IMG/VR virus record: IMGVR_UViG_2654587996_000002
Length of the DNA: 37,878 nucleotides
Direction: 5' to 3' (one strand)
Origin: a virus
Lineage: Duplodnaviria > Heunggongvirae > Uroviricota > Caudoviricetes
This document shows, one piece after another, positions 2,444 through 36,382 of this stretch; the first letter of the stretch is position 1; every line of letters starts with the position of its first letter. The position numbers and the translations under genes were made by a program. The notes under the pieces were generated by a model. That model did not search any database and was not told where the DNA came from. It was given only the letters and a program-made list of their open reading frames with translations.

Positions 2444-3376
2444 ATGACCGATATAAACGATGTAATCAAGACCATTGATGAACTTATTGATGGCGGCGTA
2501 CTGACGCAGTATGCCATCGCCAGAGAGGCGGGAATTTCCGACGGCACATTATCGGCTTTCCGTAAGGGAAAATATAAAGGTGATAACGCTGCTGTGGCTG
2601 CTTCCCTGCGTTCCTGGTATGAGAACTGGAATAAACAAAGCGCACTGCCGGAACCGCCGCAGTTTGTGGAAACGCAGACAGTCCAGGAGCTGCGCGCGCT
2701 GTTTCAGGCGGTTCGCCTGATGGGCTGTATTAACGTCATTGTGGGCGTACCGGGTGTGGGTAAAACGGCCACGGCCCGCAATTACTGTCAGGAGCAACCG
2801 AACACCTGGATGATCACCCTGTCGCCCGCGCATTCCAGCGTCACGGAGTGTATGCTGGAGCTGGCAGAGGAACTGGGGATTGATTACACCCGCGCGAACA
2901 AGGGGGCGTTATCCCGCGCCATCCGCCGTCGCCTGATGGGAACGCGTGGACTGGTGATTGTTGATGAGGCGGATCATCTTGGTATTGACGGTCTGGAACA
3001 ACTGCGTGCAATCCAGGACGCCACGGGGATCGGGATGGTGCTTATTGGTAACCCGCGCGGACTGTTTAAGGGTGGACGCCGCACCGTTGATGATTTATCG
3101 CGCCTGTTCAGCCGTCTTGCCCGTACAAAACAACTTCGCAAGGCCAAAAAGGCGGATGTGCTGGCTATTGCCAGGGCATGGGGGATTAGTGGTGAGGCCG
3201 AGCTGGCTGTCATGCAGGCTATCGCTGAAAAGCCGGGAGCCTTACGCGTTCTGACACATACGCTTAACCAGGCGTGGATCACCGCCAGCGGTGAAGGTGC
3301 CGCGCTGACAGAAAAACATATTAATGCGGCCTTTAAAGAGGTTTATACCAACCCTGAATTACTCTCACAGGTGTGA
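2444..3376 (+). CDS. Mu B-like ATP-dependent target DNA activator (AAA+)
   Basis: 310 aa with Walker A GVPGVGKT and Walker B-like LVIVDEAD; N-terminal HTH-like region; immediately downstream of A. Confidence 0.88.
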   Translation: MTDINDVIKTIDELIDGGVLTQYAIAREAGISDGTLSAFRKGKYKGDNAAVAASLRSWYENWNKQSALPEPPQFVETQTVQELRALFQAVRLMGCINVIVGVPGVGKTATARNYCQEQPNTWMITLSPAHSSVTECMLELAEELGIDYTRANKGALSRAIRRRLMGTRGLVIVDEADHLGIDGLEQLRAIQDATGIGMVLIGNPRGLFKGGRRTVDDLSRLFSRLARTKQLRKAKKADVLAIARAWGISGEAELAVMQAIAEKPGALRVLTHTLNQAWITASGEGAALTEKHINAAFKEVYTNPELLSQV

Positions 3377-3378
3377 TT

Positions 3379-3600
3379 ATGGCTGCATTTAATATTCCTG
3401 ATATCTACGGACGCTTTTACCTAGTGAATTTCGATAACGTGAAAGTGATTTCACTGGCCGAAAATAAAGAATGTGGCGATTTACTTTTTGAATTTAATGA
3501 CCGCACGCGAATGGTGATATCTGCCGGACTTGATCGCGAAGGTGCGACAGAGGTTTACAGTGGAATATGCCGTTCTGTTGGTGCAAAACAAGTCAGCTAA
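3379..3600 (+). CDS. hypothetical early protein (73 aa), in the slot occupied by kil in Mu
   Basis: ATG overlaps the B stop (TGATTATG); positional analogy only, no recognisable motif. Confidence 0.45.
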   Translation: MAAFNIPDIYGRFYLVNFDNVKVISLAENKECGDLLFEFNDRTRMVISAGLDREGATEVYSGICRSVGAKQVS

Positions 3601-3612
3601 ATGAGGTGTTAT

Positions 3613-3867
3613 ATGAATATGCAATCCTGCGGTAACAAAATGAATTTATTCGACTCCCTGAACAGCGCACGCCGTCTGACTGAACTTGCCGGTGCAGTGC
3701 TGGAGCGCAGCAAACGCTACCCACAACGTTATGCCCTGAAAACCACGCCGCCGGTAAACGAAGTTAAGGGAACCGGTGAAATTGAAATCACTGTTCAGAC
3801 CAATGGCCTGCGCCGCCGTGTAAAAGCCACCCGCATAAGCGGATGTACGGTCTACTGGGAAGTATGA
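3613..3867 (+). CDS. hypothetical early protein
   Basis: ORF with GAGG 6 nt upstream of ATG 3613; tight packing in early operon. Track start 3601 is an alternative. Confidence 0.4.
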   Translation: MNMQSCGNKMNLFDSLNSARRLTELAGAVLERSKRYPQRYALKTTPPVNEVKGTGEIEITVQTNGLRRRVKATRISGCTVYWEV

Positions 3868-4246: not shown

Positions 4247-4777
4247 ATGGCAAAACGCGTTACAAAATTAAAGGCCGCAGCCGAGGCCGCACCGCAGACC
4301 CGCGAAGAAGTCAGCCGTGATATCCGCACCCTGGGCGATATTCAGCGAGAGGCGCTGCGCCTGGAAACGGCAATGAATGACGAGGTGGCTGAAATCACCG
4401 CCCGTTATACGCCGCAGATTGAAAATCTTAAAAAGCAAATCAAAGTGCTTTTTAAAGGGATTCAGGACTGGTGCAAAACCAACCGGGATGAGCTGACGAA
4501 CGGCGGCAAAACCAAAACAGCCAATCTGACCACCGGAACGGTGTCATGGCGGCTGGGAACGCCATCATGTAGCGTCAGCCGTGATGTGGAAGGTGTGATT
4601 GAAATGCTGCGCCGTATGGGGCTTGAGCGATTCATCCGCACGAAAGAGGAAGTGAACAAGGAAGCCGTCCTGGCGGAGCCGGATGCAGTGAAAGGCATTG
4701 CCGGTATTAAGGTGAATAAAGGCGCTGAAAGTTTTTATGTCGAGCCTTTTGAACAGGACGCCGGACTGAATAAATAA
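4247..4777 (+). CDS. gam: Gam host-nuclease inhibitor (Mu Gam / Ku-like DNA-end binding)
   Basis: 176 aa; motifs LETAMNDEVAEIT, WCKTNRDELTNGGKTKTANL and GLERFIRTKEEVNKEA align closely with recalled Mu Gam. Confidence 0.9.
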   Translation: MAKRVTKLKAAAEAAPQTREEVSRDIRTLGDIQREALRLETAMNDEVAEITARYTPQIENLKKQIKVLFKGIQDWCKTNRDELTNGGKTKTANLTTGTVSWRLGTPSCSVSRDVEGVIEMLRRMGLERFIRTKEEVNKEAVLAEPDAVKGIAGIKVNKGAESFYVEPFEQDAGLNK

Positions 4778-4874: not shown

Positions 4875-5417
4875 ATGGCATATTTTTATTTCAAATTAGA
4901 CCGTGTGCAGACAAATAAATATTTCACCAAATATCAACAGACTGTTTTACCGCTACGCAACAGTATTCTTCGGGCATTACTGAAAAATACAGGCGCTGCC
5001 GGATTGCGCTTAAAGCCGTTCGCCATGGACAGAGTCAGTGAGTTTTATTTTGCCGGTGCTCTGCCTGCGGGCTGGCGTAAGCGCGATGATGTGGCTTTTA
5101 TCGGGGACGGACAGTGCTTTATTGCCAGACCTGATGAGTTATGCCCTGAAGGACCGGCGATTGCCGCAATGGTTGAAGCCGCTGAACGCGATTTAAGAAA
5201 ACATCCTGATTTCCTTGTCTGGCTCTGTGAAAAGCTGGGGGTAATGAGAATCCCCTCCATGTTTAACACGGACTCCTGGTGGACCCCGTCGCTCTCCCGT
5301 GATGCTCTGTGTGTGGTGTTTAAAGTAGGCGCTTATGGCAGGGAAATAAACGGGTGTATTCCTGAAGAATGCCAGGAAATTAAACATTCTGAATATGTGG
5401 CGCTTACGGAGGAATAA
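4875..5417 (+). CDS. hypothetical early protein (180 aa)
   Basis: ORF preceded by 97-nt intergenic gap; AT-rich 5' end; no recognisable domain. Confidence 0.5.
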   Translation: MAYFYFKLDRVQTNKYFTKYQQTVLPLRNSILRALLKNTGAAGLRLKPFAMDRVSEFYFAGALPAGWRKRDDVAFIGDGQCFIARPDELCPEGPAIAAMVEAAERDLRKHPDFLVWLCEKLGVMRIPSMFNTDSWWTPSLSRDALCVVFKVGAYGREINGCIPEECQEIKHSEYVALTEE

Positions 5418-5420
5418 TTC

Positions 5421-5954
5421 ATGATTGATGCAAAAGTGCTTGAAGGGGTTAAAAACTGGCTGAGTATTTACGGACGTCTGACCTGCGGTGTACTGGCTGA
5501 AAAAATGAATATGCCGCCATCCTCCATGGTTTATTTTCTGCGTGATGCGGTTGATGCAGGCGTGCTGACGGAATGTAACGGTTTTTATGATATTCCGCGT
5601 CCCCGCCCGGTGCAGCCGGTTCGTCGCAAATGCAGCCAGGAATGTGCGGCTGATGATGTTCAGTGGTGCAGCTTCAGAAAATCCCTGCCGTGGATTGAGG
5701 GGCATGATATTCCGTCGATGGCGTGGGAATTTGCTCAGGGCGTTCTGACCTGTGAAACCGTTTATGTGGTGGCTGAAGTTGATGAGCAGGCCATGAAAGA
5801 AGGCGTACCCCAGTTTGTGATGGCGTATATCGACATTCGCCTGGGTGTCATTATCTGCGGTTTAAGCGGCTGGAATATCACCGCGCGTGTTCTGCGCTAC
5901 CTGATTGTTGACCGGACAGCAGCGCCTGCCGGGATATCTGCGGAGGTGGCGTAA
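5421..5954 (+). CDS. hypothetical early protein, possible N-terminal winged-helix
   Basis: GGAGG 8 nt upstream of ATG; 4-nt gap from previous gene; Cys-rich middle region. Confidence 0.5.
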   Translation: MIDAKVLEGVKNWLSIYGRLTCGVLAEKMNMPPSSMVYFLRDAVDAGVLTECNGFYDIPRPRPVQPVRRKCSQECAADDVQWCSFRKSLPWIEGHDIPSMAWEFAQGVLTCETVYVVAEVDEQAMKEGVPQFVMAYIDIRLGVIICGLSGWNITARVLRYLIVDRTAAPAGISAEVA

Positions 5955-6469
5955 TGTTCTTTAAAACATCAAACCCTTCCGCGCTGGCTGCGTGGCAAAA
6001 ATACCAGCAGGACTGCCAGAAAGTTAAGGATGAGGCAAAACGCCTTGAGGCCGTGCTGAATGTTGCGTGCCGGTCGGTATTTGTATCCGGTATCAGTGGA
6101 TTTTGTTTTAAGGGGCTGCGCTTTATGGATGACAAATATCCTTTTCATCGCGACTTATGGAGAAAACCGACTGCGTCGAATGGCTGGAGCTGCACGCCGC
6201 GCACATCACGTATCCCTAAAACCCTGCGTGTTGCCTCTGATGAACTGAACATTCTGTGGCGTGAATATTCGCCCGTCACGTATGCCAGAACCGATGCCCT
6301 GTTGTTCTGGCTGGGCATTGACTTCTCAGCAATATTGTATGGTCCCGTGAACTGGTTCTGCGTTGACAATGTGATTTATCTTCAGTGCGAAGATGATTCC
6401 GCAAAACGGAAAATGACCGAAATTCTGTCTGATGAGTTTTATGCTGCTGAAAAGCGAGTCAGGGGGTGA
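5954..6469 (+). CDS. hypothetical early protein (171 aa)
   Basis: Start overlaps previous stop (TAATG); no recognisable domain. Confidence 0.5.
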   Translation: MFFKTSNPSALAAWQKYQQDCQKVKDEAKRLEAVLNVACRSVFVSGISGFCFKGLRFMDDKYPFHRDLWRKPTASNGWSCTPRTSRIPKTLRVASDELNILWREYSPVTYARTDALLFWLGIDFSAILYGPVNWFCVDNVIYLQCEDDSAKRKMTEILSDEFYAAEKRVRG

Positions 6470-6472
6470 TGC

Positions 6473-7024
6473 ATGATGAAATTACAACCCATGGGACGAA
6501 AAGGTCGCGCCCCCGCTCATGTCCGTCCGTGGATACCTGAAGAAGATGCGCTGCTGATTGCGCTTTATTCATCCACCCCGGTTAAGGATATTGCTGCCAG
6601 AATAAAAAGAACTGTCTGGGCTGTATATAACCGGACTGGTGTATTGCGCAGTTCATACCCGGAGTTACTGAAATATAAACACCCCAGATTTACACCTGAT
6701 GAAGATAAGTTTATTCGAAAAAATGCCAGAACAATGACCTGCCAGCAAATGGGAGAATATCTCGGACGTAATAAAGATTCTGTCAGATGTCGGGCAGGAA
6801 TGATTGGTGCCGGATTAACAAAGTGCGGAGAGTTACGCCCCGGCACGCGCATATCTGATGATGATGTCCGTCTCATACGTGCGCTGCGTGATTCCGATTA
6901 CCCACGCCGTCTGTCATTCCGGGAAATTGGCGAAAAGTTTGGAATATCTGAACATTCTGCTCACGCAGTTTATTACCGTCGCCGGACCGCCGAGGACGCT
7001 GTATTACGGGAGTTAACGCCATGA
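6473..7024 (+). CDS. putative DNA-binding protein with tandem Myb/SANT-like or HTH repeats
   Basis: Three repeats of similar pattern: WIPEEDALLIALY...IAARIKRTVWAVYNR, FTPDEDKFIRKNARTMTCQQMGEYLGRNKDSVRCRAG, ISDDDVRLIRALRDS...FREIGEKFGISEHSAHAVYYRRR. Confidence 0.5.
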   Translation: MMKLQPMGRKGRAPAHVRPWIPEEDALLIALYSSTPVKDIAARIKRTVWAVYNRTGVLRSSYPELLKYKHPRFTPDEDKFIRKNARTMTCQQMGEYLGRNKDSVRCRAGMIGAGLTKCGELRPGTRISDDDVRLIRALRDSDYPRRLSFREIGEKFGISEHSAHAVYYRRRTAEDAVLRELTP

Positions 7025-7206
7025 TAAAGCGACTTATACTTTTCGCAATTATCGTTCCAATTGGGGTGGTTGGTTTTATATTTTCGGTTACAGGAAATCT
7101 GTCCATGATGCCAGATATATGGTTCTTTATCAGGATGTCGCTCTTCCTGTTTATTATGAATCTTCTTATCGACATATATATCCGTATTACTGGAAAACAT
7201 AAATGA
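7021..7206 (+). CDS. small membrane protein, two predicted TM helices (61 aa)
   Basis: Hydrophobic stretches LILFAIIVPIGVVGFIFSV and IWFFIRMSLFLFIMNLLIDIYI; ATGA overlap with upstream gene; visibly AT-rich. Confidence 0.5.
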   Translation: MIKRLILFAIIVPIGVVGFIFSVTGNLSMMPDIWFFIRMSLFLFIMNLLIDIYIRITGKHK

Positions 7207-7577
7207 GAAAAATTACGTCCTTGTCAGCGTTACAGGAGATGAATATGAGTATTGAATTAAGATCGTCTTATGGATATAGAAAAATTCTCATCGCCGGAGG
7301 CATGAAACCGGAAGATGTGGAAAAAATCGTTTCTTTTATGGATAAGGAGTATGACAAACTGGATGTGCCAGAAATTATTATGGATGACATGATTCTGGAT
7401 TCAGTCGTGGCGTTAAGTCCGTTATGGATTGTGCATTCTCTTGCGGAAATTGCCAAAGGCACCGATAAACAGGCAGCTGTTGCTGCCCTTCAGACGCTTA
7501 ATGAAATGCGTATATCTCCACGCCCGGCATTAATACAGATGATTCTGTCCAGTATGGAGGATAAAGTAAATGAATAG
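7203..7577 (+). CDS. hypothetical soluble protein (124 aa) in AT-rich cassette
   Basis: Overlaps upstream stop (AAATGA); translationally coupled. Confidence 0.5.
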   Translation: MRKITSLSALQEMNMSIELRSSYGYRKILIAGGMKPEDVEKIVSFMDKEYDKLDVPEIIMDDMILDSVVALSPLWIVHSLAEIAKGTDKQAAVAALQTLNEMRISPRPALIQMILSSMEDKVNE

Positions 7578-7767
7578 TCTATCCGCTGGATGGGCGCGCC
7601 CTCTGATGGCTAAGAAGCATCATTTTTTTAAAACAGGCGATAATATCAGTATATGTAGGCGGTGGTTATATCTGGCTCATAATCGCGAGCCGGATACATT
7701 TGAAAGCCCTGATGACTGTGCCGAATGCCGCAGAAGACTGAATAAGGAGAAAGATAATGGACAGTAG
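7570..7767 (+). CDS. hypothetical small Cys-containing protein, possible zinc ribbon (65 aa)
   Basis: Cys pattern ICRRW ... CAEC; overlaps neighbours on both sides. Confidence 0.4.
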   Translation: MNSLSAGWARPLMAKKHHFFKTGDNISICRRWLYLAHNREPDTFESPDDCAECRRRLNKEKDNGQ

Positions 7768-8053
7768 TTCGCAGTTGTTCTGGTGTTTATATATCACATC
7801 GTTTTTCGGTGCATTCGTCATTACACGATGGCTGTGCCGGAAAGTTATCAGTATTTTTCATAAAAAATACCTGATTGGGCTGGCGACGACTTCTCTGATT
7901 AATGCACTTGCCAGATATCATAAGGGGGAATACTACTCAAGAATAAAAACTGATGATGGTTTTAATATTTTTGTGATTCCTCCGGAGTATCGGGTTCAGC
8001 TCGATCGGGAAAATAATATCTATCATATCAGCAGGAGTGTTGATACAGCATGA
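7757..8053 (+). CDS. hypothetical membrane-anchored protein (98 aa)
   Basis: AGGAG 7 nt upstream of ATG; N-terminal hydrophobic segment LFWCLYITSFFGAFVIT; stop overlaps start of next gene. Confidence 0.5.
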   Translation: MDSSSQLFWCLYITSFFGAFVITRWLCRKVISIFHKKYLIGLATTSLINALARYHKGEYYSRIKTDDGFNIFVIPPEYRVQLDRENNIYHISRSVDTA

Positions 8054-8559
8054 GAGGGAAACTGATATCCGCTATTCATGTGGCAAAGCGCGAGCTTGCC
8101 CTGGATGATGAGATCTACACATCCGTACTACTGGAAGCCACCGGCAAAACCAGTTGCCGGGATATGTCACCGGATGAGTTATCCCGCGTGCTGGATGTTT
8201 TCAAAAAACGCGGTTTTAAAGTGCGTCAGAAACCGGTTAACCGGGCCTTAAAACCGGGTACGGTGACCGCCAAAATTCGCGCCATCTGGAAGGTGATGCA
8301 CCGGCAGGGCTTTATCTCTGATGGCGGGGAAACAGCCCTTAACCACTGGGTGAAATCGCAGACGGCCGCGCAGAACGGCGGCGAAGGTGTGGCTAACTGG
8401 CAGTGGCTGGAACAACAACCCGCACTGGCCTCGGATGTGCTGGAGCGTCTCAAACGCTGGCACCGCCGCAAGATGCTGGATGTGCTGGGGATGTCAGCGC
8501 GTACAGTGATGAGTTATGAGCACGTTTGCAGGCTGTATGAAGAATCCTCCCCCTTTTAA
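8050..8559 (+). CDS. gemA: GemA / Mu gp16-like regulatory protein (DUF1018-like)
   Basis: N-terminal pattern KLISAIHVAKRELALDDEIY...LEATGKTSCRDMSPDELSRVLDVFKKRGF resembles Mu gp16 family; last gene before the early terminator. Confidence 0.65.
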   Translation: MRGKLISAIHVAKRELALDDEIYTSVLLEATGKTSCRDMSPDELSRVLDVFKKRGFKVRQKPVNRALKPGTVTAKIRAIWKVMHRQGFISDGGETALNHWVKSQTAAQNGGEGVANWQWLEQQPALASDVLERLKRWHRRKMLDVLGMSARTVMSYEHVCRLYEESSPF

Positions 8560-8563
8560 CCCC

Positions 8564-8594
8564 AAATCCCGCCACAGCGCGGGATTTTTATTTT
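8564..8594 (+). terminator. Rho-independent terminator at end of early operon
   Basis: Hairpin ATCCCGC-CACAGC-GCGGGAT followed by TTTTATTTT, directly after the GemA-like stop. Confidence 0.75.
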
Positions 8595-19142: not shown

Positions 19143-19550
19143 ATGAATGAACATCACACTGTGGCAGCAACAGATGATTCAGGCCTTCAGGTCAGTGGTG
19201 ACAGTCCTGTCACGGTTCTGGCAGAAGTGCGTTGCAGTCGTGCGCAGTTTCGTCGTGCGGGGTTCCTGTTCATGCGGGGACGCCAGCAGGTTGACGTCAC
19301 CCCGGAGCAGCTTGCCCGACTGGAAGCGGAGCCATGCCTCATTGTACGAATACTACAGACGACTGGTGATGATGCGGGAGCCGTGGCGGGTGTGGTTCAT
19401 GCAGCGACCGGTGCAGATTTAGCCGAAGCCGAAGCCGAAGCCGAAGCCGAAGCCGAAGCCGAAGCCGAAGCCGAAGCCGAAGCCGTACAGGATGCGGCCC
19501 GGAAAAAGACCGGCAATAAAGCTAAACAGAAAAAAAAGGCGCGCGCATGA
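19143..19550 (+). CDS. hypothetical head-region protein with (Ala-Glu)10 repeat and Lys-rich C-terminus
   Basis: ORF between T and gp36-like gene; contains the GCCGAA tandem repeat; C-terminal KKTGNKAKQKKKARA; stop overlaps next start. Confidence 0.5.
   Translation: MNEHHTVAATDDSGLQVSGDSPVTVLAEVRCSRAQFRRAGFLFMRGRQQVDVTPEQLARLEAEPCLIVRILQTTGDDAGAVAGVVHAATGADLAEAEAEAEAEAEAEAEAEAEAVQDAARKKTGNKAKQKKKARA
19422..19484 (+). repeat. perfect hexanucleotide tandem repeat (GCCGAA) x10.5 encoding (AE)n
   Basis: Read directly from the sequence; in frame within CDS 19143-19550. Confidence 0.95.
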
Positions 19551-30465: not shown

Positions 30466-31355
30466 TGTTTCATGTTGATAATAATTCCGGCGTGGCGAAT
30501 ATGCCTGCGCTGGCACCGGCGCAGAGTAATACCACCACCTGGTTTACCGAAGGTGACGGACAAAAAGGTATCAGCTGGATTGGTCAGGACTGGCTGAATA
30601 TTCTCCAGGCCGAACTGCTGAATATTCTGGCTGAAGCCAGTATTCAGCCGGATAAGGCGCAGTTAAACCAGCTTACGCTGTCCATTAAAGCCATTATCGC
30701 TGCGAATGCTTTTTCCCGGAAAAATAACCTGAAAGAAATTGCTGATGCCGGTGCGGAGGCTCAGCGTCTGGCCCGTGGTTATCTTGGTCTGGGGACGCTT
30801 GCCACAAAAAACAGTCTTGGTCCCGGTGACGTTAATGCCCTGGCGAAGGATCAGAATCTGGCCGACCTGGAGAATACGGGAACCGCCCGTAATAATCTGG
30901 ATGTTTACAGCAAAAGCGAGGGTGATAACCGTTACCTGCGCAGGGAGCAGAACGGCGCAGACATTCCGGATAAAGGGGCTTTTATCGATAACGTCGGTTT
31001 ACGGGAAACGGTAAACAGAGCCGCGAACGCACTGCCATCGAACGGAACGGCCGTTGCCGCGAACAGGCTGGCAAATGCCCACACAATTAATGGGGTTCCT
31101 TTTGACGGAACGCAGGATATAAACATCACTTCTGGTATGACTCTGCTGGATGGTGATGCCCGTTATGTGCAGAATGTGAGACTGGGTTCAGAAATGTCTG
31201 TATTAATGCCATTCGGGGGAAAAGTCGGTATAGGAGGATGTGTAATAACGGCGTTATCTATAGCGGGTGAAGTGGATAACAGTGGCGATTTTGCTTATTT
31301 TCGCCCACTACAGATATACATAAATGGCTCATGGATTACGGTATCTCAGTTATAA
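30465..31355 (+). CDS. tail fibre protein S (constant part plus currently expressed variable part Sv)
   Basis: GAGGAG RBS before ATG 30465; C-terminal ~115 codons lie inside the invertible segment and are paralogous to the oppositely oriented 31963-32328 ORF. Confidence 0.75.
30982..31007 (+). promoter_or_regulatory. gix-like recombination site (left boundary of invertible segment)
   Basis: TTATCGATAACG-TC-GGTTTACGGGAA; inner half-site identical to that of the right site in inverted orientation; resembles Mu gix / Salmonella hix sites. Confidence 0.7.
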
Positions 31356-31406
31356 ATAGGCGGTAAATAATATATTTTAAAACAGATTTATTTCCAGGAG
31401 GATTTT

Positions 31407-31928
31407 ATGGAACTAAAAAATATAACCCGTTATTATCCTGAAAATATGCCATATGGTAATAATGTTCAGTATTTTCAGAGTGAAGATGGTAAGGATTTCT
31501 ACGAGTCCCTGCCATTATTCACCAAAAAATATAAACTTTGCATAACACCTGACAGCGGCGTTATCTGCTCAATATCACAGGACGCCTCGGCGCTGTATCC
31601 TGTGGGTTTTTCCGTGGTTGAGAGCGACGAACTCCCTGAAGGCACTGATATTTCAGGTAACTGGAAGTTTGATGATGGTGTCATCTCACCGCTTCCGGTT
31701 GACTACGACAAAAAAGCGAAAACAATGCATCAGTCATATCTTAATCAGGCATATGAAAAGATTAATGACTGGAGAACTGAGTTACAGCTGGGCACGATTA
31801 GTGATGAAAACAGAGCTGCGCTTACACGATGGATGGAATACATCAGTCAGGTGAAAAAAATGGAACTACCTGCGATTAAAAACAAAGCTGAATTTGACGA
31901 CATTAAATGGCCGGAAAAGCCTGAATAA
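31407..31928 (+). CDS. tail fibre assembly protein U
   Basis: 173 aa; AGGAGG RBS; directly downstream of tail fibre gene. Confidence 0.7.
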   Translation: MELKNITRYYPENMPYGNNVQYFQSEDGKDFYESLPLFTKKYKLCITPDSGVICSISQDASALYPVGFSVVESDELPEGTDISGNWKFDDGVISPLPVDYDKKAKTMHQSYLNQAYEKINDWRTELQLGTISDENRAALTRWMEYISQVKKMELPAIKNKAEFDDIKWPEKPE

Positions 31929-31932
31929 CGTA

Positions 31933-31953
31933 AAGGGTGCTTATCGCACCCTT
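31933..31953. terminator. bidirectional hairpin between convergent U and S'v
   Basis: AAGGGTGC-TTATC-GCACCCTT perfect 8-bp stem followed by TTTTCCTTT; sits between U stop (31928) and S'v stop (31963). Confidence 0.6.
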
Positions 31954-31962
31954 TTCCTTTAA

Positions 31963-32328
31963 TCAGACGGATGAAACTGTGCGCCAGCCATTACCGATAT
32001 ATATCTGCACCGGACGGTAATAAACGCCTCCGATATTATCGGCTGAACTTTTCCCGGTATCCTGCACGTTAATACCTGAAAGCATACAACCGGAAGGTGC
32101 GCCATAACTCCAGGACATTTCATTACCTCCGGGTGAATGGTAACTCTGGGCACCAAGCTGAACGTTGCTAACGTATTTGTTATCAGCAGTAGCTTCGGTC
32201 ATACCGGAGTTAATGTATATATCCTGCGTCCCGTCAAAGGGAACCCCATTAATATTTCTTGGGGTGGCGAGTTTATTCGAGGCAACGGCGGTGCCGTCCA
32301 ATGGCAGAGCATTCGCCGCCTTATTCAC
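31963..32328 (-). CDS. alternative tail fibre C-terminal segment S'v (silent in this orientation)
   Basis: Minus-strand ORF with no ATG of its own; frame continues through the right gix site. Protein is paralogous to Sv (AANALP..GTAVA.N.LA....[13 protein letters not shown]-terminal RP.QIYI..W.TVS). Confidence 0.7.
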   Translation of the reverse strand: MNKAANALPLDGTAVASNKLATPRNINGVPFDGTQDIYINSGMTEATADNKYVSNVQLGAQSYHSPGGNEMSWSYGAPSGCMLSGINVQDTGKSSADNIGGVYYRPVQIYIGNGWRTVSSV

Positions 32329-33080: not shown

Positions 33081-35129
33081 ATGTCAGACTCCCAGTGGAA
33101 AATGCTCTCCGCCATGCCCGGAGAGTTTTCAGTCAAGGTTGCCGGTGGCACGGTGGCATTTATTGAAAGTCCTTTCAGGCCTTCGGGTAATAAAGGGGGG
33201 ATCACCTTCGCAGACTGCGTGATCCGCTTCAGCACGAAAGAGCCATTATGGGTAATGCCGGTATCCGGCAATCCCAGCGCAGAAATCACCAGTTCAGGTG
33301 TGACCGGCATTATTCCGATCACATCTGACGTGGCCGGAACACTCACGCCTTCTGACTGGAATGCACCGGATAACGCCGGACCGTCTGGCGGTACAAATGG
33401 CAGCAGTACAGAGCCGGAGTATTACTATGTGCTTCCACTGGCCGGGCAGTCCAACGGGATGGCCTACGGTGAAGGGCTTCCGCTACCGGCTTCATTCGAC
33501 CGCCCTGAACCGCGCATTAAGCAACTGGCACGTCGCAGCACGGTAACGCCCGATGGTACGTCGTGCACATATAACGATATCATTCCCGCAGACCACTGCC
33601 TGCATGATGTGCAGGACATGAGCGGGATAAACCACCCGAAAGCTGACCTGAGTAAAGGGCAGTATGGTTGTGTCGGCCAGGGGCTGCATATTGCCAAAAA
33701 ACTGCTGCCTTATATTCCGCAGAATGCCGGGATACTTCTGGTTCCCTGCTGTCGTGGTGCTTCGGCATTCACCACCGGTGATGACGGCTCATTCAGTGAG
33801 GCCAGCGGTGCTTCCGCTGATTCTTCACGCTGGGGAGCCGGTAAACCCCTGTATCATGACCTGGTAAGCCGTACCAGAGCGGCGCTGGCGAAGAACCCGA
33901 AAAACAAACTTCTGGCAGTGGTCTGGATGCAGGGAGAAGCAGACCTTGCATCGGGAAGTCAGCAGCATAATGGTTTATTCACAGCCATGGTTCAGCAGTT
34001 CAGAACCGACCTGTCTCCACTTGCAGCGCAGTGCGTGAGTGGAAATGCTGCCACGGTGCCGTGGATTTGTGGTGACACCACGTATTACTGGAAAAACACG
34101 TATGCCACGCAGTATGAAACAGTCTATGGAGCATATAAAAATCTGACCGCACAGAATATTTTCTTTGTGCCGTTCCTGACGGATGAGAATGGACAGAACA
34201 CGCCAACGAATGCTCCGGTGGAAGACCCGGATATTGTGGCTGTCGGGTATTACGGTGCGGCATCCCGTACCCAGGGCAGTTTTGTCTCCACACAGCGTGA
34301 CAGCCATTTCAGCTCATGGGCACGCAGGGGCATCATTTCTGACCGTCTGGCCTCAGCCATTCTGCTCCATGCGGGACGCACGGCTGAAGTTATGGGCGGA
34401 CAGGCCGTGCCGCCGGATGAAAAACCATCCCCTGACACGCCATCAACGCCGTCAACGGACGGGAAATCAATGACGACGCTGTTTTCTTACCGCGCATCGG
34501 AGTCAGGCGGAGCACTGACGCCACAGGGCTGGGGGGCGGAAGGCGGTAGTGCTGCTGTTGTGGATGATGTCGGTGCCAGCGGGGGCAAGGCGCTGAAGCT
34601 GACAAAACAGACCGGAAAGTCATGGTTTATGCAGCATGATGCCGGTAATGGTGCCGACCTGCTGGAAAAAGGTGGCCTTGTCAGCTGTCGTTTTAAACTT
34701 GATGGCGCGCTTACGGCTAATCAGTACGCACTGGCGCTGTACTGGCCGGTTTCTTCGCTTCCTCAGGGCGTCACACTGGAAGGTAATGCCGGTCATAACC
34801 TGCTGGCATCGTTTTACGTTCAGAGCGATGCCACAGACCTTATCGTGATGTACCACAAGGGTAATCCAGACCAGAACACGAAGCTGGGTTCATTCGGTGC
34901 ATTTAATAACGAGTGGCATACGCTGGCATTCCGTTTTGCCGGTAATAACAGCATTCAGGTGACGCCGGTGATTGATGGTAAGAACGGGGAACCGTTCATG
35001 CTGTCTCAGTCACCTGTCGGTTCTTTTGCGGCAGACAAGTTACGCCTGACCGATATCACCAGTAATGCAACGTATCCGGTACTGATTGACAGCATTTTGG
35101 TGGAAGTGAATAACCCGTCAGCAGGATAA
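33081..35129 (+). CDS. large accessory protein: SASA-like carbohydrate O-acetylesterase core plus C-terminal lectin/LamG-like domain
   Basis: 682 aa; LPLAGQSNGMAYGEG (GQSN motif) and VVWMQGEADLASG (QGE motif) as in sialate O-acetylesterase-like esterases; Gly/Ser/Thr/Pro linkers; C-terminal ~200 aa resembles concanavalin/LamG-type carbohydrate-binding folds. Confidence 0.6.
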   Translation: MSDSQWKMLSAMPGEFSVKVAGGTVAFIESPFRPSGNKGGITFADCVIRFSTKEPLWVMPVSGNPSAEITSSGVTGIIPITSDVAGTLTPSDWNAPDNAGPSGGTNGSSTEPEYYYVLPLAGQSNGMAYGEGLPLPASFDRPEPRIKQLARRSTVTPDGTSCTYNDIIPADHCLHDVQDMSGINHPKADLSKGQYGCVGQGLHIAKKLLPYIPQNAGILLVPCCRGASAFTTGDDGSFSEASGASADSSRWGAGKPLYHDLVSRTRAALAKNPKNKLLAVVWMQGEADLASGSQQHNGLFTAMVQQFRTDLSPLAAQCVSGNAATVPWICGDTTYYWKNTYATQYETVYGAYKNLTAQNIFFVPFLTDENGQNTPTNAPVEDPDIVAVGYYGAASRTQGSFVSTQRDSHFSSWARRGIISDRLASAILLHAGRTAEVMGGQAVPPDEKPSPDTPSTPSTDGKSMTTLFSYRASESGGALTPQGWGAEGGSAAVVDDVGASGGKALKLTKQTGKSWFMQHDAGNGADLLEKGGLVSCRFKLDGALTANQYALALYWPVSSLPQGVTLEGNAGHNLLASFYVQSDATDLIVMYHKGNPDQNTKLGSFGAFNNEWHTLAFRFAGNNSIQVTPVIDGKNGEPFMLSQSPVGSFAADKLRLTDITSNATYPVLIDSILVEVNNPSAG

Positions 35130-35263
35130 AAAAATGCCGCCGGGAAAGGGAAAACAAGGAAACCGGCGGCAAAGGTCGATACATCCAAAGCAAAAATGCA
35201 GGACGCCTTTTTAACCAACAGGTATTAACTATGTCAACACCATGCCAATAATGGAGATGAATA

Positions 35264-35446
35264 ATGACATTTTTACAGCTGATATTACTGTATTTCTGCA
35301 CGGCGGTATGTGTCTTATACCTGGTGAGTGGTGGCTATAAGGCCATCAGAAATTATGTTCGCCGCAAAATTGATGACGCAGCAGCCGAAAAGCTCAGTAA
35401 AACAGCGCAGGCAACTCCGCTCCCAAAAGACCCGACCCAGCCCTGA
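35264..35446 (+). CDS. small membrane protein (60 aa, one TM)
   Basis: N-terminal hydrophobic LILLYFCTAVCVLYLVSGG then charged tail; AT-rich accessory region. Confidence 0.4.
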   Translation: MTFLQLILLYFCTAVCVLYLVSGGYKAIRNYVRRKIDDAAAEKLSKTAQATPLPKDPTQP

Positions 35447-35481
35447 TTGCAGGGCTTTATTCCCGCATGAGGAGGATATAC

Positions 35482-35736
35482 ATGCCAGAAATTAAAGGCA
35501 CCGTCACTGAAGACCTGGTAAAACAGGCACTGTATTCCGGTGAAGTAAATAAGTTGCTGAAAGCGCAAGTCCGCAAGGATTTTGAGGCACAAATCGACAC
35601 TTACGTTGATGAGGTGCTGGCAAAACTTATTGGACCAGCTGCTGCGGCCAGTGATGCTGATAATGAGCCGAAAACCGAAGCACAGCCAGAACAACCAGAC
35701 CCGGCTCAGCCCGGAACTGACAGCACCATGATGTAA
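35482..35736 (+). CDS. hypothetical small acidic protein
   Basis: GGAGG 6 nt upstream of ATG 35482; followed by terminator-like hairpin. Confidence 0.45.
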   Translation: MPEIKGTVTEDLVKQALYSGEVNKLLKAQVRKDFEAQIDTYVDEVLAKLIGPAAAASDADNEPKTEAQPEQPDPAQPGTDSTMM

Positions 35737-35742
35737 CAATAC

Positions 35743-35775
35743 AAACCGGCAGTTTCTCCTGTCGGTTTTATTTTC
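35743..35775 (+). terminator. Rho-independent terminator
   Basis: AAACCGGCAG-TTTCTC-CTGTCGGTTT hairpin followed by TATTTTC. Confidence 0.65.
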
Positions 35776-35811
35776 ATGGGCGCTTTATATACCAATCAGA
35801 GGACGATAATC

Positions 35812-36012
35812 ATGGACAAGAATACAAAGCAACCTGATACCAAAGGCCTGGAAATATTAAGCACAGAAATTATCAATGCGCTACGTTCAGGACTTGATGA
35901 AGATACATTACAGGATCGAAACTTCACCACCGCAATGTGGATAGCTATGCAGATCCTGTGTACCCCAAGATGCGCTATTTTTGCGGTTCGTGAAGGTCAA
36001 CTGACTCGCTGA
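35812..36012 (+). CDS. hypothetical small protein (66 aa)
   Basis: AGAGGA about 9 nt upstream of ATG 35812; track ORF begins at 35776. Confidence 0.4.
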   Translation: MDKNTKQPDTKGLEILSTEIINALRSGLDEDTLQDRNFTTAMWIAMQILCTPRCAIFAVREGQLTR

Positions 36013-36120
36013 TTGCACGAATTACATCAGAAAATCAGGCGTTCCATAACTTCATAGCTGATGAATCACCTCCCTGAATCATTGTTGATGACTTTTCAAT
36101 CTATTTGTTGTATCAATTAA

Positions 36121-36152
36121 ACAAATCGAATCGATCGTTTTTGTCGATCGAT
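36121..36152. promoter_or_regulatory. GATC-containing palindrome upstream of com-like gene (candidate Dam-sensitive operator, by analogy to Mu mom control region)
   Basis: AATCGATCG-TTTTTGT-CGATCGATT: perfect 9-bp inverted repeat carrying two GATC sites, about 45-75 bp upstream of the com-like start. Confidence 0.4.
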
Positions 36153-36196
36153 TAGGCGAGAAAGATATCATCAACAAAGCAGGAGGTTATGCGGCC

Positions 36197-36382
36197 ATGT
36201 ATCGAAACATACGGTGCCGACACTGCAATAAGCTACTGGCACGGGCCAGTTTCAGCTATCTGGAAGTAAAATGTCCGCGCTGCAAAACCCTCAATCAAAT
36301 CACATCTCAGAGCGCCACAGAGCACCCCACATACACAAGGAAATCCTGCCGTGGGGAACAAGAAACATTACTTTCAGTCTGA
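36197..36382 (+). CDS. com: Com-like zinc-finger translational activator
   Basis: MYRNIRCRHCNKLLARASFSYLEVKCPRCKTLNQ has the CxxC...CxxC arrangement and N-terminal similarity to Mu Com (recalled MKSIRCKNCNKLL...RCPRCK); AGGAGG RBS; 3' end overlaps start of the downstream modification gene as com does with mom. Confidence 0.8.
   Translation: MYRNIRCRHCNKLLARASFSYLEVKCPRCKTLNQITSQSATEHPTYTRKSCRGEQETLLSV

Follow-up and report, generated by a model that had tools for sequence, protein, structure and literature searches.

Introduction

Bacteriophage Mu is a founding model for transposition, and to our knowledge some ten open reading frames (ORFs) of its semi-essential early region have no assigned function and the functions arm and cim have no assigned ORF. 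Here we describe four consecutive plus-strand ORFs, designated W1-W4, that occupy positions 4875-7024 of the 37,878-nt stretch of viral DNA recorded as IMGVR_UViG_2654587996_000002 (the window). The window is a Mu-like Escherichia coli prophage that encodes a Ner-like protein, transposase A, B, a Kil-like protein, Gam, GemA, Mor and lysozyme. We find that W2 and W3 are orthologous to Mu gp11 and gp12, respectively, that W4 is by profile comparison a remote homologue of Mu gp9 with a predicted tandem Myb/homeodomain-like architecture, and that W1 is best described, from its sequence relationships, as a divergent DUF5420-superfamily protein in a variable slot next to gam.

The closest described gene orders are those of Mu and SfMu. 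In Mu, gp11 (Mup11) and gp12 (Mup12) follow gam in the same order as W2 and W3 and with the same 1-nt overlap between them, and gp9 (Mup09, formerly E8), a protein of 99 residues with two units, is encoded upstream of gam. SfMu carries an extra DUF5420-type gene between gam and gp11, as the window does, whereas Mu is without such a gene. In the literature that we searched, no function is assigned to Mu gp9, gp11 or gp12, and nothing specific is said of DUF5420 or of phage Myb-like proteins.

For the architecture of W4, the nearest described systems are the archaeal CRISPR-repeat-binding proteins Cbp1 and Cbp2 and the eukaryotic Myb/SANT proteins. Cbp2 consists of two helix-turn-helix (HTH) repeats that are tethered by a basic linker and are related to Pax and Myb, Cbp1 consists of three such repeats, and for both proteins sequence-specific binding of repeated DNA has been documented (PMC3597662; PMC10883916). 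The Myb/SANT structures of c-Myb R2R3 (1h88 and 1h89) contain tandem three-helix bundles in which a W/F-x-P-E/D-E-D motif opens helix 1.

W2 and W3 are orthologues of Mu gp11 and gp12

BLASTP matches W2 to Mu gp11 along its entire length (177 residues, 67.8% identity, E 7e-80) and W3 to Mu gp12 along 169 residues (52% identity, E 1e-62). Profile searches place the two proteins in PHROG 1949 (6.4e-105) and PHROG 2314 (2.7e-81), respectively. W2 also passes the threshold of Pfam PF25754, Gp11_C, by a wide interval (136.3 bits against a cutoff of 27, E 4.5e-40), with residues 90-167 covering positions 1-78 of the 78-position profile. For the N-terminal part of W2, a winged-helix domain is possible, as judged by two weak and co-located matches, one of HTH_20 to residues 18-49 (E 0.16) and the other of HTH_24 to residues 13-49 of an orthologue (E 0.08). 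All W3 relatives carry PF26885 according to precomputed annotation. The AlphaFold2 (AF2) model of W3 is confident and depicts a compact alpha/beta protein; the W3/gp12 fold has no solved structural relative and no cellular relative, and is phage-restricted. Searches of the Protein Data Bank (PDB) by sequence and by profile returned nothing meaningful for W1, W2 or W3, so that W2 has no PDB relative by either method.

We examined the arrangement of these genes in 107 loci with W4 or W3 relatives from a viral collection, which we annotated with hidden Markov models (HMMs) and phmmer. The gp11 and gp12 genes are adjacent in every annotated locus, and they lie downstream of gam in Mu and the window alike. 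The stop codon of gp11 overlaps the ATG of gp12 by 1 nt (TAATG or TGATG) in 52 of 53 distinct sequences. This overlap argues for translational coupling of the two genes and, together with its conservation, suggests that gp11 and gp12 may form a stoichiometric complex.

In SfMu (L003, NC_027382), a 515-bp gap that is unannotated after the gp11 homologue holds a gp12 homologue at 7442-7946. It is detected by tblastn as two pieces, 7442-7492 and 7500-7946, and the frameshift between them reflects either a pseudogene or a sequencing error.

W4 and Mu gp9 are remotely homologous

BLASTP comparison of W4 with the proteins of Mu and SfMu produced no match. However, when a profile of W4 orthologues was aligned with Mu gp9 using hhalign, the two matched with a probability of 96% and an E value of 4.6e-9. 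The 93 aligned columns include both HTH units of gp9 and fall on W4 residues 65-168, which is to say repeats 2 and 3. Likewise, both proteins match PHROG 323, "transcriptional regulator, D5-like", W4 at 1.2e-51 and Mu gp9/E8 at 5.2e-29. These profile comparisons identify W4 as a remote homologue of Mu gp9/E8. Both are basic proteins of the early operon; they differ in that W4 has three units and a C-terminal helix and is encoded downstream of gp12.

Among the 64 loci that contain both gam and gemA, all 64 encode exactly one Myb-type protein, which is of the gp9 type and upstream of gam in 15 and of the W4 type and after gp12 in 49. The two types are thus mutually exclusive in these loci, and W4 and gp9 appear to be interchangeable versions of one predicted tandem-HTH DNA-binding module. 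The module is also not specific to Mu-like phages. P2-like phages encode distant W4 homologues (35-42% identity) in their early operon, with a DNA methyltransferase on one side and a gpA-type replication nickase on the other, which indicates that the W4-type module moves between unrelated temperate phage types. The occurrence of PHROG 323 in P2-like early operons, and the fact that NCBI already names the protein SANT/Myb-like, mean that the description of this architecture as unusual for a phage early gene, given in the original prediction, was overstated.

Two sets of loci deserve separate mention. In the P2-like phage locus L049, the three-repeat W4 homologue (184 residues, 36% identity, positions 7004-7558 of that locus; also present in L046-L056) has as neighbours a DNA methyltransferase, a deoxyribosyltransferase-like ORF, another regulator and the gpA-type nickase. 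In the Salmonella-type loci L044, L045, L085 and L102-L108, B, the DUF5420 slot, gp11, gp12, gemA and mor are present; no Gam is detectable there by phmmer at E <=1e-5, seven of these loci are also devoid of a gp9/W4-type protein, and different ORFs fill the places of Gam and of the Myb-type protein.

W4 has a predicted tandem Myb/homeodomain-like architecture

The three units of W4 extend over approximately residues 18-58, 71-110 and 125-169 and are followed by the C-terminal helix. The original prediction had recognised three repeats of a W/F-x-P-[ED]-[ED]-D motif, each followed by HTH-like helices. The motif is literal in units 1 and 2 (W-I-P-E-E-D at residues 20-25 and F-T-P-D-E-D at residues 73-78) and has degenerated in unit 3 to I-S-D-D-D at residues 127-131. 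Repeats 1 and 2 are homologous to one another (hhalign, E 6e-7 over 40 columns). AF2 modelling from 14 orthologues (mean predicted local distance difference test score, pLDDT, 77.9; predicted template modelling score 0.42) gave three separate three-helix bundles with pLDDT values of 80-94, connected by linkers of low confidence, so the three sets of HTH-like helices stand. The modelled helices span residues 22-31, 37-43 and 48-58 in unit 1, residues 75-84, 90-97 and 101-110 in unit 2, and residues 129-140, 149-156 and 160-169 in unit 3, and in each bundle helices 2 and 3 would constitute the HTH. W4 has an isoelectric point (pI) of 10.0 and a net charge of +14, and is positive in every unit and every linker.

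The first match of the W4 model in a Foldseek search is Cbp2 (2lvs; probability 0.97, E 0.1). Other high-probability matches are c-Myb R2R3, Trichomonas (Tv) Myb3, Tc3 transposase and SNAPc, all of which are tandem three-helix DNA binders; c-Myb R2R3, Tv Myb3 and the Cdc5 Myb domain have probabilities of 0.63-0.84 with E values above 0.1. A sequence-profile search of the PDB with W4 likewise ranked 2lvs first (E 0.014), across units 1 and 2. With three modelled bundles, homology between repeats 1 and 2, a charge of +14 and Cbp2 as the closest solved relative, the tandem Myb/SANT-like character ascribed to W4 in the original prediction is borne out, and we infer, fairly confidently, that W4 binds DNA and is of the tandem Myb/homeodomain-like type.

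W4 and Cbp1/Cbp2 have in common tandem, imperfect, homeodomain/Myb-like three-helix units, basic linkers and the existence of two-unit and three-unit versions, such that the pairing of Mu gp9 with W4 mirrors that of Cbp2 with Cbp1. They differ in that the hosts of Cbp1 and Cbp2 are archaeal and there is no CRISPR context at W4. W4 has no match to NCBIfam NF040595 (cutoff 140 bits), and Mu gp9 matches HTH_Cbp1 weakly, with 17.6 bits (E 0.0027). We therefore regard Cbp2/Cbp1 as an architectural analogue of W4, membership in that family being below the score thresholds. The likeness to eukaryotic Myb/SANT proteins consists of the three-helix bundle, the motif that opens helix 1 and the tandem arrangement. 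Myb repeats have three tryptophans at regular spacing, a pattern that W4, with only 2 tryptophans, does not preserve, and the setting of W4 is a bacterial virus, not a eukaryote.

W4 itself falls below the threshold of the Pfam Myb families PF00249/PF13921 (14.0 bits against a cutoff of 24.4, E 0.057). An orthologue, P0024, reaches the cutoff with 24.4 bits, and the multi-repeat relative P0020 passes it with 140 bits (2e-41). An exhaustive profile search returned 4393 relatives of W4 at E <=1e-3, including orthologues of about 180 residues. Many of the relatives are proteins of 300-880 residues that contain 3 to 9 copies of the unit, and several of these pass Pfam Myb thresholds. Close relatives of W4 occur in E. 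coli and Salmonella only. The names that source records give to W4 vary ("AsnC family protein", "SANT/Myb domain-containing protein", "winged helix-turn-helix"); PGAP/NCBI already label the E. coli copies "SANT/Myb-like DNA-binding domain-containing protein".

P0020, P0026 and P0030 are among hundreds of the 300-880-residue proteins with tandem W4-type HTH units. In P0020, six such copies are fused to an N-terminal ResIII/Helicase_C helicase.

Two W4 alleles differ mainly in the third helices

Two alleles of W4 that are approximately 72% identical are found in E. coli prophages whose surroundings are otherwise 90-100% identical. The divergent patch of DNA extends over about 6600-7000 of the window, lies wholly inside the ORF and includes no intergenic DNA. 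Synonymous divergence (dS) is 0.6-0.7 within the patch and about 0.1 in the W1-W3 flanks, and the ratio of nonsynonymous to synonymous divergence (dN/dS) within the patch is approximately 0.25. These values indicate that the patch is an old allele that was moved by recombination rather than the product of rapid adaptive change. The differences are not spread evenly over the units: the alleles agree at 13-14 of 31 positions in the third helices, the predicted recognition helices, and at 49-51 of 55 positions in the first two helices (p 2e-6 to 7e-6 by Fisher's test). Such a concentration in helix 3 is what a changed binding specificity would look like. We saw no linkage of the W4 alleles to alleles of the downstream cassette, mor or gemA. 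Locus L037, for instance, combines allele B with the cassette of the window, and L002 combines allele A, the one found in the window, with a different cassette.

W1 occupies a variable slot between gam and gp11

W1 has no counterpart in Mu, in which the slot between gam and gp11 is empty. It aligns over its full length of 180 residues with SfMu gp11 at 40.6% identity (BLASTP), follows gam as that protein does, and matches PHROG 2260 (3.6e-72). PGAP names the SfMu protein "DUF5420 family protein". W1 remains below the threshold of Pfam DUF5420 (PF17457; 13.4 bits against a cutoff of 26, E 0.07), and SfMu gp11 has no match to DUF5420 in the copy of Pfam that we used. The proteins that fill the same slot in L023, L044, L104 and L105, however, pass DUF5420 with 38-53 bits, and the W1-family HMM matches them at 1e-70 to 1e-83. 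By this transitive homology, W1 would be a divergent branch of the DUF5420 superfamily.

The slot varies considerably among relatives. It holds the 180-residue W1 type, a 196-residue type that is 25% identical to it, types of 201-211 residues, or other types from 176 residues upward, and L104 has two copies. W1, with a pI of 6.7, behaves like an accessory gene in a swappable slot beside gam, and among the four genes only this slot behaves like an accessory or arms-race locus.

By eye, W1 and W3 share an N-terminal F-K...KYQQ motif, a central WL..LG motif and a C-terminal I-x-x-S/D-E-F/Y-x-A motif. We considered distant paralogy of the two proteins and did not find it demonstrated: hhalign gave E 0.5, and enriched alignments gave a collinear match with E 0.02 and a probability of 1-2%.

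The four ORFs are real genes of the early region

All four ORFs are real genes. In pairwise comparisons with homologous loci, dN/dS is 0.27-0.41 for W1, 0.02-0.24 for W2, 0.10-0.32 for W3 and 0.14-0.28 for W4, a range comparable to that of gam (0.05-0.23). Full-length conservation spans E. coli, Salmonella and Mu. Of 5426 complete E. coli genomes, 231 (about 4%), O157:H7 strains included, carry the W1-W4 block at an identity of at least 90%, and it is also found in Mu-like phages inserted in Shiga toxin (Stx) phages. W1-W4 thus belong to families that are catalogued but uncharacterised, and that are already annotated in hundreds of genomes.

The coordinates of the block and its neighbours are collected in Table 1. 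W1 begins after a gap of 97 nt from gam. Within the block, W1 and W2 are separated by 3 nt, W2 and W3 overlap by 1 nt, W3 and W4 are separated by 3 nt, and there is an overlap of 4 nt between the W4 stop codon and the ATG that follows. A Shine-Dalgarno sequence precedes each of the four ORFs. Promoter-like or terminator-like sites within the block do not exceed the number expected from shuffled sequence, and the first convincing terminator-like site downstream of it is the hairpin at 8564-8587, where the early transcript probably ends. The short junctions, the Shine-Dalgarno sequences and the lack of an internal promoter or terminator above chance argue that W1-W4 are part of a long early transcript.

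Table 1. Features of the W1-W4 locus and its surroundings (positions in the window)
Feature	Position	Strand	Description
gam	4247..4777	+	Pfam Phage_Mu_Gam, 5.5e-42; 57% identity to Mu Gam; upstream synteny anchor
W1	4875..5417	+	180 aa; putative divergent DUF5420-superfamily protein (PHROG 2260); variable slot between gam and gp11
W2	5421..5954	+	177 aa; orthologue of Mu gp11 (formerly E10-E12)
W3	5954..6469	+	171 aa; orthologue of Mu gp12 (formerly E13); compact alpha/beta protein in the AF2 model
W4	6473..7024	+	183 aa; three predicted tandem Myb/homeodomain-like HTH units and C-terminal helix; remote homologue of Mu gp9/E8 by profile comparison
Cassette ORFs	7021-8053		61-aa hydrophobic peptide; 124-aa PHROG 1988 (37% to SfMu gp14); 65-aa Cys-rich PHROG 2358; 98-aa PHROG 17269
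gemA	8050..8559	+	Pfam GemA, 6.5e-30; 46% identity to Mu GemA; downstream anchor
Terminator-like hairpin	8564-8587		9-bp stem and T-run; just 3' of gemA, before mor

The original prediction had described four tightly packed genes of these lengths between gam and an AT-rich cassette, and its coordinates, spacing and base composition are confirmed. Its statement that none of the four has a recognisable Mu counterpart is not, given the 67.8% and 52% identities of W2 and W3 to gp11 and gp12, the hhalign match of W4 to gp9 and the 40.6% identity of W1 to its SfMu homologue. These relationships do not lead to Mu proteins of known function: gp9, gp11 and gp12 are themselves uncharacterised, and the status of the block as one of unknown function stands. 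The structure prediction and fold search that had been proposed as a check gave three-helix bundles with a best Foldseek E value of 0.1 for W4 and an alpha/beta protein with no solved relative for W3.

Discussion

We interpret W1-W4 as the middle section of the "semi-essential early" region, transcribed within a long early operon, and as comprising a gp11-gp12 pair that serves the lytic cycle, the tandem-HTH DNA binder W4 and the accessory protein W1. We assign a probability of about 0.6 to this interpretation as a whole. According to it, gp11 and gp12 (W2 and W3) would act together as a complex in the lytic cycle of replicative transposition, and the strict conservation and coupling of the pair point to a core role in the lytic cycle rather than to an arms-race gene. 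W4 would bind double-stranded DNA through three units joined by basic linkers, and each unit would place its third helix into the major groove so that a composite site is read, as in Myb R2R3 and Cbp1/Cbp2. W1 would be an exchangeable accessory protein. Like the remaining ORFs of the gam-gemA interval, W2 and W3 would furthermore be candidates by position for the orphan Mu function arm (amplified replication of Mu).

Several observations weigh against this interpretation. No experiment and no characterised homologue was found for any of the four proteins. The 107 loci were retrieved through their W3 or W4 homologues, such that the synteny counts describe a biased sample. Seven Salmonella-type loci have gp11 and gp12 and neither a gp9-type nor a W4-type protein (hmmsearch --max, E <10), so a rule of exactly one Myb-type protein per phage fails there and the W4/gp9 module would be dispensable in some lineages. 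Repeat 3 of W4, although in register, matches repeats 1 and 2 weakly (hhalign, E 0.01-0.07), and the profile match to Cbp2 is marginal at E 0.014. The comparison of the whole W4 model with the PDB by Foldseek is not significant, with a best E of 0.1, owing to the flexible linkage of the three domains. A search of the phage for a multi-copy DNA motif that could be the target of W4 found only chance-level families of two or three copies and one coding hexamer repeat. The winged helix at the N terminus of W2 derives from sub-threshold Pfam matches. As for arm, older maps of Mu place it between gam and gem, which would make gp11-gp15 candidates, with gp11 and gp12, for their invariance and coupling, the strongest among them; Mu gp13-15 also lie in the gam-gemA interval.

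An alternative, which was favoured in the original prediction, is that the block serves anti-defence or host takeover, with at least one of the four proteins neutralising a host defence, repair or replication protein. Gam acts in this way on RecBCD, and the block directly follows gam in the early operon. The W1 slot, which is present, absent, 25-40% diverged or duplicated among close relatives, has the variability typical of accessory and counter-defence genes, dN/dS is higher for W1 (0.27-0.41) than for the other three genes, and the fold of W3 is phage-restricted with no cellular relative. Early genes of Mu-like Pseudomonas phages also interact with host defence, in that their Gam and GemA license Gabija (PMC12407980). 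None of the four proteins has a match in PADLOC, NCBIfam or the PDB chains, and the PADLOC result (no match at E <=1 for W1-W4 or for the four cassette ORFs) bears on anti-defence indirectly, as its models are of defence systems. In the literature searched, none of Mu gp9, gp11 and gp12 is credited with a part in anti-defence. Moreover, gp11 and gp12 are invariant across Mu, SfMu, E. coli and Salmonella and are under strong purifying selection, unlike arms-race genes; W1-W3 have pI values of 5.1-8.9, none being strongly acidic like DNA mimics; and W4 resembles a DNA binder, not a protein inhibitor. We consider this alternative unlikely for the block overall, and it stays mainly as an idea about W1. 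A more elaborate proposal, which we consider quite unlikely, combines elements of both: gp11-gp12 and gp9/W4 would be an undescribed accessory nucleoprotein machinery of transposable phages and the basis of the 40-year-old orphan function arm, W4/gp9 would act like Cbp1 and read a composite site in phage or host DNA through allele-specific recognition helices, and W1 would be a counter-defence partner of Gam.

We also considered whether W4 is a dedicated transcriptional regulator of the cassette at 7021-8053, with W1-W3 as unrelated cargo. Aca regulators control anti-CRISPR operons in this manner, and W4 is an HTH protein by prediction, carries the PHROG label "transcriptional regulator", differs between alleles in its recognition helices, and has a stop codon that overlaps the first cassette gene. 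A promoter-like site is present at 7013-7040; it is a 9/12 match, and such sites are rarer than in shuffled sequence (4 found, 6.9 expected). The W4 alleles do not co-vary with the cassette, as L037 and L002 illustrate, the swapped patch lies inside the ORF and brings no intergenic DNA with it, and gp9 in Mu-type phages is upstream of gam, far from the cassette. Such a role for W4 is, in our judgement, very unlikely. Finally, the ORFs could be annotation noise or decaying, functionless remnants of a defective prophage, as their uniform annotation as "hypothetical" and the frameshift in the gp12 homologue of SfMu might suggest. This explanation is effectively refuted by the dN/dS of all four genes (0.02-0.5), W1 included, by their full-length conservation among E. 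coli, Salmonella and Mu, by the Shine-Dalgarno sites, by the confident AF2 folds and by the conserved stop/start overlap.

Under the interpretation that we prefer, a gp11-gp12 lytic-cycle pair with a DNA binder and an accessory protein, a search for a core accessory function would best begin with the invariant and translationally coupled gp11-gp12 pair. W4 and gp9 would represent one tandem-HTH module whose recognition helices diversify, and the DUF5420 slot next to gam would be the only part that resembles an arms-race locus. The useful outcome lies in the relationship of gp9 to W4, the allele pattern of the recognition helices, the conserved coupling of gp11 with gp12 and improved annotation; none of this will surprise phage specialists.

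Other features of the window

The cassette that follows W4 has a guanine-plus-cytosine (GC) fraction of 0.39-0.42, compared with 0.49-0.57 around it. In relatives, the same slot contains entirely different genes: gp13-15 in Mu, a minus-strand DUF2513 gene in E. coli JKHS016, and about 2 kb of other ORFs in Salmonella prophages. The cassette is the real accessory hotspot of the early region. Further stretches of low GC (0.42-0.46) are located at 31001-32000 and 35001-37500, in the late or right-end region.

Upstream of gam, positions 3601-3867 encode an 88-residue homologue of the Kil-type septation inhibitor (PHROG 2679, 6e-44; 36% identity to Mu Kil over the C-terminal half), which is preceded at 3373-3600 by an ORF of 75 residues that belongs to PHROG 3375. 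The hexamer repeat encountered in the motif search is a perfect tandem array of AGCCGA (10.8 copies) at 19421-19485, inside a late-region ORF, where it would encode a dipeptide repeat; its length could vary between strains.

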